A stretch of 64,000 nt of DNA, from contig RXKC01000001.1 of the NCBI GenBank assembly GCA_003962975.1, forward strand, positions 38,061-102,060. Reading direction: 5' to 3'. The stretch is from Candidatus Saccharimonadota bacterium (GTDB taxonomy: Bacteria > Patescibacteriota > Saccharimonadia > Saccharimonadales > AWTP1-31). Below are positions 33,537 to 38,244 of the stretch, in pieces. The notes under the pieces were generated by a model. It saw only the letters and a list, made by a program, of their open reading frames with translations. It was not told where the DNA came from and made no database searches. Within the stretch, counting starts at the first letter, position 1, and each line of letters starts with the position of its first letter. The position numbers and the translations under genes are program-made.

Positions 33537-34331
33537 TTGAGGTATGTTGATATGCATTTACCTAAACGTGTAGCTGCAGTACGACATGGAGAATCTGCCT
33601 ACAATAAAATGGCCGCAGTAAAACAGGCGCATCCGCTTTACAGACAGTTCGATGCAGCTTTTCAGGCTCGCTCAGAGAATCCTGAGCGAGCAGTCGAATT
33701 GGCGAACGAGTTACTCGATGCGCAGGTTCTTTCCTTTGGTGCAAGTGATCTCAGCGACAATGGCAATCGTCAATTATATGAAACGGGTGCAGGGCTTAGC
33801 GGTAATCGTGAATTGCCGGATCTCGTGATAGCCTAGCCGTATCTGCGCACAGGACAGACATTAGCAGGCATGGTGTTAGGCTGGCCGGAATTGGGGGCCG
33901 TTGAAACGATAGTCGAAGAACGAGTTCGAGAAAGAGAGCACGGATTAGCTAATCTCTACAATGACTGGAAGGTTTTCTATACTCTCCACCCAGAGCAGCA
34001 ACGTTTGCATGCACTCGAAGGAAGTTACTGGTACAGGTATCCTCAGGGTGAAAGCATTCCAGATGTCAGGGAGCGAATGAGATCGGAGATGAATACGCTG
34101 TGCGTGGATTATCCGGGTCTCGACATTATGATTGTCACACACCACGTATCTATACTCTCGCTGGTAGCAAACGTACAGGGGCTAGATAGTGTGGCGTTCA
34201 AGAAGCTGGATAGAACAAACAAGCCAGACAACGCCAGCATTACAACCCTAGTCCCAATCTCTGATGGCGGACCGACGGGCAGCATGGTTGTCGAAAGCTA
34301 TAACCAGAAGTTCTACCAGGAAGCAGCCTAG
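33537..34331 (+). pseudogene. histidine phosphatase (phosphoglycerate-mutase-like) family gene interrupted by in-frame TAG at 33834-33836
   Basis: ORFs 33537-33836 and 33870-34331 share one frame. The first carries the catalytic RHGES motif. The stop falls exactly where the family has Ser in S-P-x-x-R (VIA*PYLRTGQT). The second ORF carries REREHG and VTHHVSI. Confidence 0.65.
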
Positions 34332-34385
34332 ACATGAGCCATGTCAAGTGACACCACCAAAGTACGTAGGTGGTGCCACTGAAGG

Positions 34386-34865
34386 TTACTTCCCAAAGAG
34401 CTGAATCCGGACCTGGTCAGTGTCTTGTTTGCAAAGCAGGTAGACACCCTGTCTTTCAAGCCGCTGTTTCATTGCTGCGGCCATACTAAATGATTGCTCG
34501 AAGATCTCCAGTATGCCGTATTCAGGGTCATCCCGGGCAACTCTATTTATATGGATTTTTGGGCATGACAAACAAGCATGTATGAACATGATTTCACCCA
34601 CTTTTCCGAATCCTTCATGCTTAAAGGTAAGTCCTACTGGCTGCATACCACCTTTGCAGTCAGACCTACGGTCTCCTGTTTGGCTGTCGACATGTTTTGA
34701 CCAGAAGCATATGTTACAGTGGTTTCGGTTCACTGTTCCCATGTAGTCGTTTATTACGACAAATTGTCTACAGTGCGAGCAACGGAAGCCACCTGCGTTA
34801 TGTTCTTTGTTCCAATCTTGTAATCTTTTCTTCTCAAAATAGTCACTATCCTCATAGCGTTTCAC
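34386..34865 (-). CDS. RNHCP-domain protein
   Basis: Cys-rich Zn-ribbon-like motifs (CSHCRQ, RNHCNICFWSKH, CLSCP). Family name recalled from the RNHC signature. GTG start 6 nt after AGGA. Confidence 0.65.
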   Translation of the reverse strand: MKRYEDSDYFEKKRLQDWNKEHNAGGFRCSHCRQFVVINDYMGTVNRNHCNICFWSKHVDSQTGDRRSDCKGGMQPVGLTFKHEGFGKVGEIMFIHACLSCPKIHINRVARDDPEYGILEIFEQSFSMAAAMKQRLERQGVYLLCKQDTDQVRIQLFGK

Positions 34866-34879
34866 AAATTTTCCTTACT

Positions 34880-35065
34880 AAAAAACCAGCCGTTTGGCTG
34901 GTCTACTGGATAGTAAAGAAACTATTTTCTATATGGTATTGCGAACTGAATTTTGACCAGCCAAAGATACCCCTTCGCGAGGGGCAACGGCGGTTGCAGT
35001 GGTACGGTAGTTTACTAAATGTGTCATACAAAATACTATTATATACACTTATGCATATATATCAA
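34880..35065 (-). promoter_or_regulatory. candidate transcription attenuator: promoter, 32-codon leader ORF, antiterminator/terminator
   Basis: Minus strand: TTGATA (35065-35060), 16-nt spacer, TATAAT (35043-35038). Leader ORF 35027-34929 (MTHLVNYRTTATAVAPREGVSLAGQNSVRNTI). Segment A GGCTGGTC (34962-34955) is complementary to B GACCAGCC (34903-34896). B also pairs with C GGCTGG (34891-34886), followed by T6 (34885-34880). Confidence 0.5.
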
Positions 35066-35153
35066 TGGTGCGCGAGAGAGGACTTGAACCTCCACGTCCC
35101 TAAGGAACACTACGACCTCAACGTAGCCTGTCTACCAATTCCAGCACTCGCGC
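35066..35153 (-). tRNA. tRNA-Leu (anticodon GAG)
   Basis: Reverse complement folds as acceptor GCGCGAG/CTCGCGC, anticodon arm CTACG-TTGAGGT-CGTAG, long variable arm, T arm GGAGG-TTCAAGT-CCTCT, A-CCA. Confidence 0.9.
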
Positions 35154-35253
35154 ACAGACATCGTATTCTAGCATTTTACAGTGGTAAATGAAAGCATAAA
35201 GCTATAGACGATTGCTATTTACTTTGCTATAATCACCTCTGTTAGAAAAATTT

Positions 35254-35330
35254 GGGCGCTTAGCTCAGTTGGCTAGAGCACCTCGTTTACACCGAGGGGG
35301 TCGGGGGTTCGAGTCCCTCAGCGCCCACCA
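35254..35330 (+). tRNA. tRNA-Val (anticodon TAC)
   Basis: GGGCGCT acceptor, D arm GCTC-AGTTGGCTA-GAGC, anticodon arm CCTCG-TTTACAC-CGAGG, T arm GGGGG-TTCGAGT-CCCTC, CCA. TGCTATAAT lies upstream (35224-35232). Confidence 0.92.
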
Positions 35331-35337
35331 TACAAGC

Positions 35338-35367
35338 AACTCATCTGAAAGGATGAGTTTTTTGTTT
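35338..35367 (+). terminator. intrinsic terminator after tRNA-Val
   Basis: AACTCATC-TGAAAG-GATGAGTT followed by a T-run. Confidence 0.75.
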
Positions 35368-35418
35368 GCATATTCAACCTTGTAACCAGGTGGTATAGTT
35401 AAAGAACAAGGAGAATAC

Positions 35419-36165
35419 ATGGAAGGCTTTATAACATCTATAGTTTTTGTTGGAATCTTTATTCTGGCAAGCGGTATACGCATTATTAATCAGTACGAAC
35501 GAGGGGTCATCTTGACGCTCGGTAAGTACACTGGCATGCGTAACCCGGGGCTGAACATTATCATTCCTATCGTCCAAACGCTCCGCAAAGTAGATGTACG
35601 CTCAACTCCTGTTGACGTGCCAAAGCAAGAAGTTATCACCAAAGACAACGTAACTATTGGTGTCGATGCAGTTGTGTACTTCCGTGTGCTTTCGGCAGAA
35701 AAGGCTGTGCTAGAAACGACAAACTACACCTACGCCACCGCACAGTTTGCCCAAGCAGCACTACGTGATGTGGTTGGTAATGTTGAGCTAGACGAATTAC
35801 TCAGCAAGCGTGACGAGATCAGTACCCAAATCAAGAACGTCGTCGACAGTGAAACCGATAAATGGGGAATTGACGTCGAGAATGTAAAGATCCAAAACAT
35901 CGAGCTGCCACAAGATATGAAGCGCGCTATGGCTAAGCAGGCAGAAGCCGAGCGTGAGCGCCGTGCCGTTATCATCACGGCCGGTGGTGAAAAAGCTGCC
36001 GCCCAAGAGGTTGCCGAAGCCGCCAAGATCTTGAGTGAATCACCAGGTGGTGTAGCAATTCGTACCTTGCAAACACTCGAAAAAATATCGGTAGAACCAT
36101 CACAAAAGAGTGTCTTTGTCCTTCCAATGGAAATGACAGACGCGCTCAAAAAACTCGTCCGCTAG
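35419..36165 (+). CDS. SPFH/band-7 (stomatin/prohibitin-like) membrane protein
   Basis: RBS AAGGAG. N-terminal TM, SPFH core (INQYERGVILTLGKY...), PQDMKRAMAKQAEAERERRA coiled-coil segment. Confidence 0.9.
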   Translation: MEGFITSIVFVGIFILASGIRIINQYERGVILTLGKYTGMRNPGLNIIIPIVQTLRKVDVRSTPVDVPKQEVITKDNVTIGVDAVVYFRVLSAEKAVLETTNYTYATAQFAQAALRDVVGNVELDELLSKRDEISTQIKNVVDSETDKWGIDVENVKIQNIELPQDMKRAMAKQAEAERERRAVIITAGGEKAAAQEVAEAAKILSESPGGVAIRTLQTLEKISVEPSQKSVFVLPMEMTDALKKLVR

Positions 36166-36193: not shown

Positions 36194-36508
36194 ATGTCTC
36201 TGCAAAAATATCAGCAGCGTATTGACGCTGAACTGCAACTCTATGAAAAGCCCTATTGGGACCCGCTCAGTATTCTGGCGCGCATGACAGAAGAAGTTGG
36301 CGAAGTAGCCCGTATTGTAAACCACACCTTTGGAGATAAGCCAAAAAAGGTTAGCGAAGAACACGAGCCACTCGAAGACGAACTAGCTGACGTTATCTAC
36401 GCGGCTATTTGCTTAGCGAACAGTCAGAAGCTTGACCTCGACGCCGCTATGGAGCGAGTCATCGCGAAGCTAAGCACTCGTGACAAAGATCGCTTCAAAA
36501 AGAAGTAG
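36194..36508 (+). CDS. MazG-like nucleotide pyrophosphohydrolase (small single-domain)
   Basis: EVGEVARIV ... EDELADVIYAAICLAN, the EExxE/D-type MazG helices. 104 aa. Confidence 0.7.
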   Translation: MSLQKYQQRIDAELQLYEKPYWDPLSILARMTEEVGEVARIVNHTFGDKPKKVSEEHEPLEDELADVIYAAICLANSQKLDLDAAMERVIAKLSTRDKDRFKKK

Positions 36509-36828: not shown

Positions 36829-38244
36829 ATGGAAGTGCAGACATTTACTTCAGACACTAAACGTTTGGCTGGAACGGAAACCGAGCACGGTTGCCAGGTC
36901 GAGCGTGAATTTAACGGTCACATGCTTGTGGGCCATGAGATTGCGCGCTATGTCTATGACTACATGGACGAAGATGTTGCCCACGCCGGCTATCATTTAG
37001 AAACGGGAGACAGGGCATACCCTGATATTAATGGTCACTTTGAATTTGCCACTGCAGAAGAAGTCTCTTTTAGGAGCGTTATAGAACGCGAATTTTGGGG
37101 CGGTCAGTTTGTGTTCCGTGCTATGCAGCGAGCCAAAGAGGCCGGACGAATTGCTGATTTTAAGATCACTAAGAACGTAAACAACGGTATCTTCTATTGG
37201 GGATACCACGAAAACTATCTGACGCCACGAACCGAATGTTGGCAAGAACAGTACATATTGCCATTGGCCGTGCACCTTGCAACCCGACAAGTCTTTGCGG
37301 GTGCTGGCGATCTGCGTCCAGACGGAACATATTTGGTGTCACAAAAAGCCGACAGTACTAGGTCTCTCAACCATGGTGAGGCACACCAAGAGCTCTGGCG
37401 ACCACTGGTCGACATGCGTGACGAGCCACACGCTGACGCAGACATGTATCGACGACAACATATAACTCCTGTTGACCCACATCTGTGGAAGTTCCCAGCG
37501 TGGTTGCAGATGGCTACTACTTCGGTGGTTATGCGGTTAGTAGAGGGAGGGGTAGACTTGAGTGACCTGTATTTGCAGAATCCGGTCGCAGCAACTCACC
37601 AGGTAGCTAAAGACGTTTGGCTCAAGCAGCCACTAGAAATGGCAAATACACAAAAGACGTACACAGCGCTTGAGATTCAGTACCTACTGGCACTACGCAG
37701 CAAGCAGTTTGCAGAAACGCATCCTCTGCCCGAGGAAGAGCAGATAGCCATAAAAGAATGGATACGTATTCTCGAAGATCTACAGAGTGGCCCATCTGCG
37801 TGTGTTGACCGAGTAGAATGGATCGGTAAACGCAATTTTCTGAATGCCATGCGCGAAAGGCGAGGCGTGGATATGAGGCATCCGCATATGGTTGCCGCTG
37901 CTCGCAACTGGACAGACCTCGACCCTGAAACTGGGTTTGGGCTACGCCTGCAACATAAATCTGCTGATATACCGTATGGCGACAACCTTGTAGACGGTTC
38001 GGTGCCGCCAGCTGACACGCGTGCTCACGCCCGCGGCCGCCTGATCGGTGCAGTCATGGCATGGACACGTAGGTCTCAAGAAAGACCAAAACACCCCATT
38101 AGAGGTATGGGTACAGACTGGAGCAGGGCGACATTAGACAGGTCACATAGCGTCAAAGAAGGGCAACATATCCTGATGTTAGACCCGTACCGCTCACGCT
38201 ACGACCATGTCGAAGAAGTCATTGATGAAATGGAGGCCGCCTAA
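36829..38244 (+). CDS. Pup-ligase/deamidase family protein (PafA/Dop-like carboxylate-amine ligase)
   Basis: Collinear matches to the M. tuberculosis PafA sequence as I recall it: GTETEHG (GIETEFG), [11 protein letters not shown] (GSHPEYATAE), WGYHENYL (YGCHENYL), [31 protein letters not shown] ([21 protein letters not shown]), [10 protein letters not shown]. 471 aa. Confidence 0.8.
   Translation: [471 protein letters not shown]

Follow-up and report, generated by a model that had tools for sequence, protein, structure and literature searches.

The stretch of DNA analysed here (the window) is 64 kb of a Candidatus Saccharibacteria genome, and the element of interest is read on its minus strand, where a tRNA-Leu(gag) gene is followed by a promoter, a short open reading frame (ORF), a series of mutually complementary RNA segments and the gene for a protein of 159 aa that matches the Pfam family RNHCP (PF12647, E 2.7e-23). 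The initial annotation of the locus had read this arrangement as a candidate transcription attenuator, and all of its coordinates were recovered when the minus strand was re-read from 34500 to 35300 (Table 1). The promoter that it had proposed, TTGATA-16-TATAAT, agrees with the consensus at 11 of 12 positions and is the top promoter-like site within 3 kb, and the 32-codon leader ORF runs, as described, from its ATG through a segment A to a TAG stop codon. The perfect complementarity reported between segments A (GGCTGGTC) and B (GACCAGCC) not only holds but extends from 8 nt to 10 bp (UUGGCUGGUC with GACCAGCCAA), and the terminator formed by B with a third segment, C, likewise extends to 8-9 bp with a T6 tail; in the window the A:B helix is the more stable of the two (-17.3 vs -13.8 kcal/mol for the terminator hairpin). 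The terminator ends 4 nt before the AGGA ribosome-binding site, with the GTG start of the RNHCP gene next. The parts listed by the initial annotation therefore all stand, but its inventory was incomplete, since it did not include two further hairpins (P1 and P3), an upstream segment that pairs with A, a candidate anti-Shine-Dalgarno (anti-SD) sequence (CUAUCCAG) or the probable leaderless start of the ORF.

Table 1. Features of the RNHCP leader locus and related genes. Positions are those of the window unless another locus (L) is named. MFE, minimum free energy structure; SD, Shine-Dalgarno sequence.
Feature	Position	Strand	Remarks
tRNA-Leu(gag)	35153-35066	minus	5' of the leader promoter
-35 box TTGATA	35060..35065	minus	begins 1 nt past the tRNA-Leu 3' end; promoter as a whole 35065-35038; TTGACA-like box kept at orthologous loci
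-10 box TATAAT	35038..35043	minus	16-nt spacer from the -35 box
Leader ORF MTHLVNYRTTATAVAPREGVSLAGQNSVRNTI, 32 codons + TAG	34929..35027	minus	ATG at 35027, TAG 34931-34929; without SD
Segment 1 (ACCGCC)	34989..34994	minus	complementary to A, candidate anti-antiterminator; pairs with A in the MFE
Hairpin P1 (UGCCCCU-CGCGA-AGGGGUA)	34968..34986	minus	inside the ORF; fold and covariation
Segment A, core GGCTGGTC	34962-34955	minus	8 nt complementary to B
Segment A, extended UUGGCUGGUC	34955..34964	minus	putative antiterminator 5' strand; ORF codons 22-25; A:B helix 95.1% paired
AAAAUAG motif	34922..34928	minus	P3 5' arm, back-up stop codon; AAUAG (34922-34926) invariant in 59/59
Hairpin P3 (AUAGU-UUCUUU-ACUAU)	34910..34925	minus	96% paired
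CUAUCCAG, CUAUCC(AG)	34906..34913	minus	candidate anti-SD; invariant; would pair with the SD of RNHCP across the terminator
Segment B, core GACCAGCC	34903-34896	minus	complementary to A
Segment B, extended GACCAGCCAA	34894..34903	minus	common to putative antiterminator (with A) and terminator (with C); pairing analysis
Segment C GGCTGG (GGCUGGU) + T6 (34885-34880)	34880..34891	minus	intrinsic terminator 3' arm and tail
SD AAGGA of the RNHCP gene	34872..34876	minus	6 nt 5' of GTG
RNHCP-domain gene, 159 aa	34386..34865	minus	GTG start at 34865; monocistronic here; putative regulated gene
MazG/NUDIX genes	window 36194-36508 (+); L020 884-1294; L101 1666-2352; L102 3454-3984; L103 4807-5334		near RNHCP

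The upstream regions used for comparison were gathered without reference to the leader, through exact-protein look-ups and one metagenome scan with an RNHCP protein alignment (A1). The scan returned 80 loci, 77 of which gave usable upstream regions, and a second alignment (A2) of 59 leaders, 58 of them distinct sequences, forms the base of the family-wide counts given below. The terminator pattern was matched in 65 of the 77 regions, and the complete unit, comprising promoter, start codon, ORF, segments A, B and C, U-run and SD, was present in 65 of the 66 metagenomic orthologues with usable upstream sequence. It was also found 5' of RNHCP in five loci which were fetched separately (L018, L020 and L101-L103), the last three of these having been picked solely for the size of their contigs. 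Ten strain-level copies have an identical leader, and the unit is kept upstream of RNHCP orthologues down to approximately 47% protein identity. The complementarity of A, B and C at orthologous loci, the lack of which the initial annotation had named as evidence against its reading, is thus strongly present. No leader was found upstream of the ten most distant RNHCP homologues (42-47% identity) or upstream of seven homologues from other phyla; distant homologues without it, at 33-47% identity, belong to other phyla of the candidate phyla radiation (CPR) and to the Bdellovibrionales. Within the fetched loci the P3/B/C motif occurs only directly upstream of RNHCP, and a scan of viral contigs for the P3/B motif gave no matches.

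The antiterminator helix A:B is paired in 95.1% of cells across the 58 distinct sequences, with five of its ten pairs changed on both sides, and pairing falls to 23-46% when the partner is slid by 1-3 columns. An unguided RNAalifold consensus consists of the P1 core and A:B. The pair at alignment columns 84:188 is the most telling, being UA in 39 sequences, CG in 17, UG in two and unpaired in none, while the same position of B against C is AU in 33 and GU in 19, C keeping its U when B turns from A to G. Segment C is an almost exact copy of A, and A:B might for that reason be dismissed as a by-product of the terminator; however, as C remains unchanged where A compensates the change in B, A:B appears to be a structure selected for itself and not a consequence of C copying A. 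We take this covariation as direct evidence for a selected pairing. The B:C helix is 90% paired with an invariant core, the terminator being conserved in all 59 aligned leaders, and the gap between its U-run and the SD ranges from 4 to 20 nt across loci. At one locus (L072, ~655-680) a 22-nt GC-rich palindrome (GGCCTGCCTGCCGGCAGGCAGG) lies in this gap and would fold as a second hairpin. A simple terminator scan of the window did not list a terminator-like hairpin here, though one is evident from the sequence and appears in all of the folds. Compared with shuffled sequence the leader has the more stable fold (z = -2.86), with one of 200 shuffles as good.

In the window the element directly follows tRNA-Leu, and with A and C as near-copies the B:C hairpin alone would yield complementarity between A and B, so that it could be argued that the hairpin merely terminates the tRNA gene and that the ORF and the A/B match are due to chance. 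This explanation, and with it any notion of a tRNA-associated element, is refuted by the tRNA-free loci and by the A/B covariation. A tRNA is nearby in four of the 60 loci scanned and absent from the remaining 56, in which the whole unit with its own promoter is kept; the compensatory changes involve A and B but not C; and the composite P3/B/C pattern, which occurs once in the 64-kb window, was found in none of 100 shuffles of the window. We therefore give it a negligible chance of being correct. The genes beside RNHCP vary from locus to locus, each leader having its own promoter, and in two orthologues of about 70% identity which lie in other contexts, after CopG antitoxin genes and after a NUDIX gene, the promoter, ORF, A, B, C, U-run and SD have all been kept. 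At L018 (353-1228) and L019, an orthologue of 72% identity, the place of the tRNA is taken by BrnT and CopG toxin-antitoxin genes, and the junction ...ACCATTGACA... into the leader promoter is kept, as though the promoter-proximal end of a tRNA gene had been retained. At L013 (1-60, a Logan contig), unrelated sequence replaces the body of tRNA-Leu immediately upstream of ...GCGCACCA and the leader, which may be an assembly chimera or a real rearrangement at the 3' end of the tRNA.

The ORF is also under constraint. Its start codon is ATG in 57 of the 59 leaders, GTG in one and TTG in one, and it is open through A in 57, with the stop codon 3-39 nt past A. In L033, L068 and a variant leader with changed B and C (L051, GGACCGGUC ... 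CUGGUU), which form a subclass with a short ORF of 14-21 codons, a UAG abuts the 5' edge of A, and a ribosome terminating at this UAG would still cover A. The ORF thus covers or abuts A in 59 of 59, and in every one of these its stop is separated from B by at least 23 nt. Over the stretch that begins with the start codon and ends with A, stop codons number two in frame, compared with 103 and 106 in the other frames (two compared with 48 and 45 when the first five codons are set aside), and after mononucleotide shuffling the region stays open only 32% of the time. Segment A is read in frames 2, 1 and 0 in 33, 14 and 12 sequences respectively, according to clade, and is accordingly translated as LAGQ, SGWS/GWP or WLV; as it is open in every frame used, it would seem that the nucleotides of A are conserved for RNA pairing whilst the openness of the frame is maintained for the ribosome. 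Start codon and P1 are 33, 36, 39, 42 or 45 nt apart in all 59 leaders, despite indels at several positions, and P1 together with its linker varies from 23 to 26 nt, which suggests that the frame of codons 1-16 matters and that the frame after P1 does not. The ratio of synonymous to non-synonymous single-nucleotide codon changes adds a weak signal, at 77:99 in frame versus 43:100 and 37:102 when the frame is shifted. We infer from the conserved start codon, the multiple-of-three indels and the frame-independent openness that the leader ORF is translated.

Conservation of the leader peptide, which the initial annotation had proposed as a check, holds weakly for the N-terminal sequence and not at all for the C-terminal half, which through frame shift is wholly different between clades (LAGQ..., SGWSK..., WLV...). 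This bears on the possibility that the small peptide is functional in its own right, or that the terminated leader RNA acts in trans, with the terminator setting the ratio of the small gene to RNHCP. The N-terminal 14-16 codons do keep their frame and show a mild synonymous excess, and the Sinorhizobium trpL attenuator offers a documented precedent for action in trans of both leader RNA and leader peptide (PMC6614838, PMC7298713). However, a peptide that varies from 20 to 37 aa, with a weakly conserved N-terminus and an interchangeable C-terminus, makes a poor candidate for a functional product, and neither version accounts for the A:B covariation. Both would also be compatible with attenuation. 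We consider them very unlikely as the explanation of the element.

Where the upstream sequence reached far enough, at 33 loci, the best -35/-10 pair has on average 9.7 matches out of 12 and the end of the -10 box lies 6-10 nt (mode 8) from the A of the start codon, with C or T at -1. With this spacing transcription would be expected to start at or near the AUG and no room is left for an SD, thus the leader mRNA is probably leaderless or has a 5' untranslated region of 3 nt or less, a conclusion for which the comparative support is moderate. A promoter scan of the window locus gave no promoter-like site between the leader promoter and the RNHCP start; in particular, the sequence scan found no RNHCP promoter downstream of 34880, whereas the presence of one, shown by transcript data, was what the initial annotation had named as speaking against its reading. 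An internal promoter at the -10-like AATAGT was considered and rejected, as it has no conserved -35 box and its transcript would lack A and always terminate.

Further RNA elements surround these core pairings. In P1, six of seven pairs are changed on both sides across the 58 distinct sequences. P3 is 96% paired; its innermost pair covaries (UA 35, CG 5, GC 1) and its outer pairs are invariant. The AAUAG that pairs with CUAU in P3 also supplies, within UAGAAAAUAGUUAG, stop codons in all three frames, and the ORF stops directly before or inside AAAAUAG in about half of the loci. Segment 1, upstream of P1, forms a duplex with A whose mean energy is -10.2 kcal/mol compared with -8.1 kcal/mol after shuffling, 45 of 59 leaders doing better than their shuffles, and 70% of cells are paired when fixed alignment columns are used. 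In three sequences with GGUUGG in A, the G of segment 1 has become A, a compensatory GC-to-AU change, and B keeps a G.U pair. As for the candidate anti-SD, in the window MFE UUUCUUUACUA (CUAUCCAG with its flanks) pairs across the terminator with the SD-containing UAGUAAGGAAA. The CUAUCCAG/SD duplex averages -12.6 kcal/mol with its own partner, -8.9 with swapped partners and -7.3 when shuffled, being better than shuffled in 55 of 59, and in the terminator state 38 of 59 leaders have most of the SD paired, versus 26 of 59 in the A:B state.

The multi-stem fold made by P1, P3 and A:B, with conserved bases at its junctions, invites the suggestion that the terminator and antiterminator are switched by a bound ligand or protein, for example by RNHCP acting on its own leader, and that the ORF is not the sensor. 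AAUAG and CUAUCC(AG), on either side of P3, are invariant in 59 of 59 and stricter than the paired stems, and binding of nucleic acid is conceivable for a protein as rich in Cys and His as RNHCP. However, such a switch has no need of a start codon at the 5' end, of an ORF that is open through A in three frames or of indels in multiples of three; the strand from A to P3 is long and variable (20-45 nt), unlike the core of an aptamer; and CUAUCCAG is more simply explained as an anti-SD. Nor does the leader match any Rfam family, the cmscan hits with E up to 10 being sub-threshold chance matches (RsaOG, with 17.3 bits where the gathering score is 50, and mir-5615), whilst a permissive cmscan of 34300-35500 put only two tRNAs above threshold. 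A switch operated by a bound factor alone is therefore judged to be unlikely.

The folding with and without masking that the initial annotation had recommended was run on the 59 leaders. In nascent RNA ending before C, A:B forms in 47 of 59 when nothing is masked, in 59 of 59 with a ribosome-sized mask at about codon 10 and in none when A is masked. In RNA that reaches through the U-run, the MFE contains the terminator in 45 of 59 without a mask and in 58 of 59 once A is masked, and in RNA that includes the SD region the terminator is the MFE in 54 of 59. On average about 5 kcal/mol separates the terminator state from the A:B state, and the window behaves like the rest. In these folding models the element is a bistable switch, in which A:B is predicted to be favoured kinetically if A is free and the terminator to be favoured thermodynamically afterwards. 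The attenuation geometry proposed at the outset, in which A:B and B:C exclude each other and a ribosome on A favours termination, is therefore supported by conservation, covariation, constraint on the ORF and the masked folds, its ribosome-dependent direction being what we infer from them. The comparative evidence, strong as it is both for a switch and for an ORF, indicates that the element is most probably a ribosome-mediated (leader-peptide) transcription attenuator which controls the monocistronic RNHCP gene in Saccharibacteria.

Such an attenuator might operate as follows. Transcription from a dedicated sigma-70-type promoter would begin at the AUG or no more than about 3 nt away from it, and the ORF of around 30 codons would be translated as a leaderless mRNA by a ribosome which passes segment 1, then P1 and then A. 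Were the ribosome on A as B emerges from the RNA polymerase, B would be free to pair with C, transcription would terminate and a leader RNA of ~150 nt would be released. A ribosome held within the first 10-16 codons would instead cover segment 1 and free A, which could then be the first to capture B and allow read-through into RNHCP. On a leader free of ribosomes, either segment 1 would pair with A, leading to termination, or A:B would form. There may also be a second layer, as in the terminator state CUAUCCAG tends to pair with the SD, such that read-through RNA which refolds would be poorly translated.

However, this interpretation should be considered with some caution, as a number of observations weigh against it. 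The leader ORF lacks an SD, and one orthologue (L056, 53% identity) lacks the leader, its RNHCP gene directly following another ORF. At approximately half of the loci the ORF ends 23-39 nt beyond A, at a stop codon where a waiting ribosome would no longer cover A, and with a mask at the stop codon A:B still forms in the nascent RNA of 35 of the 59 leaders. Segment 1 is a candidate anti-antiterminator with moderate support, and A:B nonetheless prevails over it in 47 of 59 nascent folds when nothing is masked; the support for sequestration of the SD by CUAUCCAG is likewise only moderate. The invariance of AAUAG and CUAUCC exceeds what these helper pairings need and leaves room for a bound factor. 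Lastly, the leader ORFs contain no run of any one codon, and what bias they do have, with Thr at 18.5% and Ala at 19.3% of codons 6-16 (5.8% and 9.4% in the proteins of the window), is confounded by the overlapping C-rich RNA pairing segments.

Comparison with known systems helps to place the element. Classical leader-peptide attenuators, such as the trp, thr, his and leu leaders of E. coli and the ilvBNC and trp leaders of Corynebacterium (PMC11857589, PMC10272879, PMC3890552), share with it a short promoter-near ORF, four successive segments which pair 1:2, 2:3 and 3:4, and an intrinsic terminator directly before the structural gene, and here too the position of the ribosome on the leader would select the pairing. 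Unlike them, the RNHCP leader has no run of codons for a single amino acid and no SD, being probably leaderless; its target is a single Cys/His-rich protein and not a biosynthetic operon; and its host is a Saccharibacterium with a reduced genome. It also adds a covarying P1 between segments 1 and 2, and an invariant module of hairpin and anti-SD between 2 and 3. The probable leaderless start recalls the leader peptides of Corynebacterium (PMC3890552) and also the mycobacterial leaderless polycysteine short ORFs, which are reported by Canestrari et al. (bioRxiv 10.1101/834739) to sense Cys through their poly-Cys tract and to control translation via sequestration of the SD. The two have in common a first-cistron short ORF, leaderless there and probably so here, in which the position of the ribosome governs, or here would govern, structures that sequester the ribosome-binding site. 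They differ in that the RNHCP leader has a conserved intrinsic terminator and a covarying antiterminator but no codon tract, Cys making up 0.3-0.4% of leader residues with no polycysteine sensor tract.

Antibiotic-responsive leader-peptide attenuators, exemplified by B. subtilis yxjB with tylosin (PMC6851288), resemble the RNHCP leader in that stalling within a short ORF flips the terminator to the antiterminator, without a codon run and for a single target gene, although the likeness is one of logic only. The target of such a drug-responsive leader is a stress or resistance factor, whereas RNHCP has no known link to the ribosome or to resistance, and its leader has no known stalling motif or inducing drug. 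Riboswitch platforms that act on transcription have the same mutually exclusive terminator and antiterminator, along with sequestration of the SD; in contrast to these, the RNHCP leader contains no recognisable aptamer and its sensor region is an ORF under coding constraint. In its structure the element is of the attenuator kind, and, judged by the sequence comparisons, it constitutes a new family of ribosome-mediated transcription attenuator which is absent from Rfam.

What the leader might sense is a separate question. A regulatory run of codons or rare codons was sought and the idea abandoned, as no run was found and ACC is not rare in the genome; of 56 sequences, 39 have Thr at codon 9. 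The leader does not resemble an amino-acid-sensing attenuator, for it has no codon run and the gene that it would regulate, RNHCP, has no known role in the synthesis or import of amino acids. Saccharibacteria are ultrasmall episymbionts which live on antibiotic-producing Actinobacteria. We would tentatively suggest, as a possibility that we ourselves regard as somewhat doubtful, that the leader reports translation stress and not the supply of an amino acid, either through peptide- or drug-dependent arrest in codons 1-16 or through failed leaderless initiation, that RNHCP is a stress-induced factor, for example for ribosomes or RNA, and that AAUAG/CUAUCC provides a second input such as feedback by RNHCP.

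The RNHCP protein itself offers few clues. It is 100% identical to a protein listed by NCBI for a Candidatus Saccharibacteria bacterium. Homologues of 56-72% identity are of similar size, ~160 aa (158-165), with the same N-terminus kept, and the protein alignment A1 contains invariant Cys and His residues which may bind zinc. A profile search of the PDB gave nothing better than E 0.39, an AlphaFold model (pLDDT, the predicted local distance difference test score, of 79) compared with the PDB by Foldseek had no significant neighbour (best E 0.22), and the search against NCBIfam gave nothing above cut-off. A literature search on RNHCP returned only chemistry papers and none on the domain. Around distant homologues of RNHCP, at 20 loci, an Rfam scan gave tRNAs alone and no known riboswitch.

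No gene neighbour of RNHCP is conserved across the fetched loci, and the four long contigs share nothing consistent. MazG/NUDIX nucleotide pyrophosphohydrolase genes do recur close to RNHCP, one to a few genes away, in neighbourhoods that otherwise have no relation to each other (Table 1), possibly by chance in such small genomes. Downstream of RNHCP in the window, and convergent with it, a histidine-phosphatase gene is present as two ORFs (33537-33836, plus strand, 99 aa; 33870-34331, plus strand, 153 aa), of which the second matches only positions 69-184 of the His_Phos_1 profile; the strain copies L008-L014 are called alike, and this could reflect a mis-called start or else a split or pseudogene that has become fixed. 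On the other side of the leader there is a divergent tRNA-Val (35254-35330, plus strand), with its own promoter-like site at 35205-35233, in which TG precedes the -10 box, and with a hairpin resembling a terminator at 35338-35359. A 471-aa protein of the Pup-ligase family (PF03136, E 3.6e-68) is encoded at 36829-38244 (plus strand), and a second copy, in another genome at L101 10670-12085, lies less than 5 kb from RNHCP; pupylation-type enzymes in CPR bacteria may merit attention.

Saccharibacteria and other CPR bacteria have very small genomes in which few regulators are recognisable, and a literature search found no leader-peptide attenuator or leaderless mRNA described for Saccharibacteria. 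The element described here is a well-supported cis-regulatory family, found at more than 60 independent loci and not represented in Rfam, and the alignment offers a set of natural variants in its frame-shifted ORFs, its compensatory A/B pairs and its short-ORF leader subclass. If it is an attenuator, it would imply that leaderless translation is at work in the Saccharibacteria. It would also give a first functional handle on the RNHCP domain (PF12647), the expression of which appears to depend on the passage of a ribosome over a leader of 30 codons.

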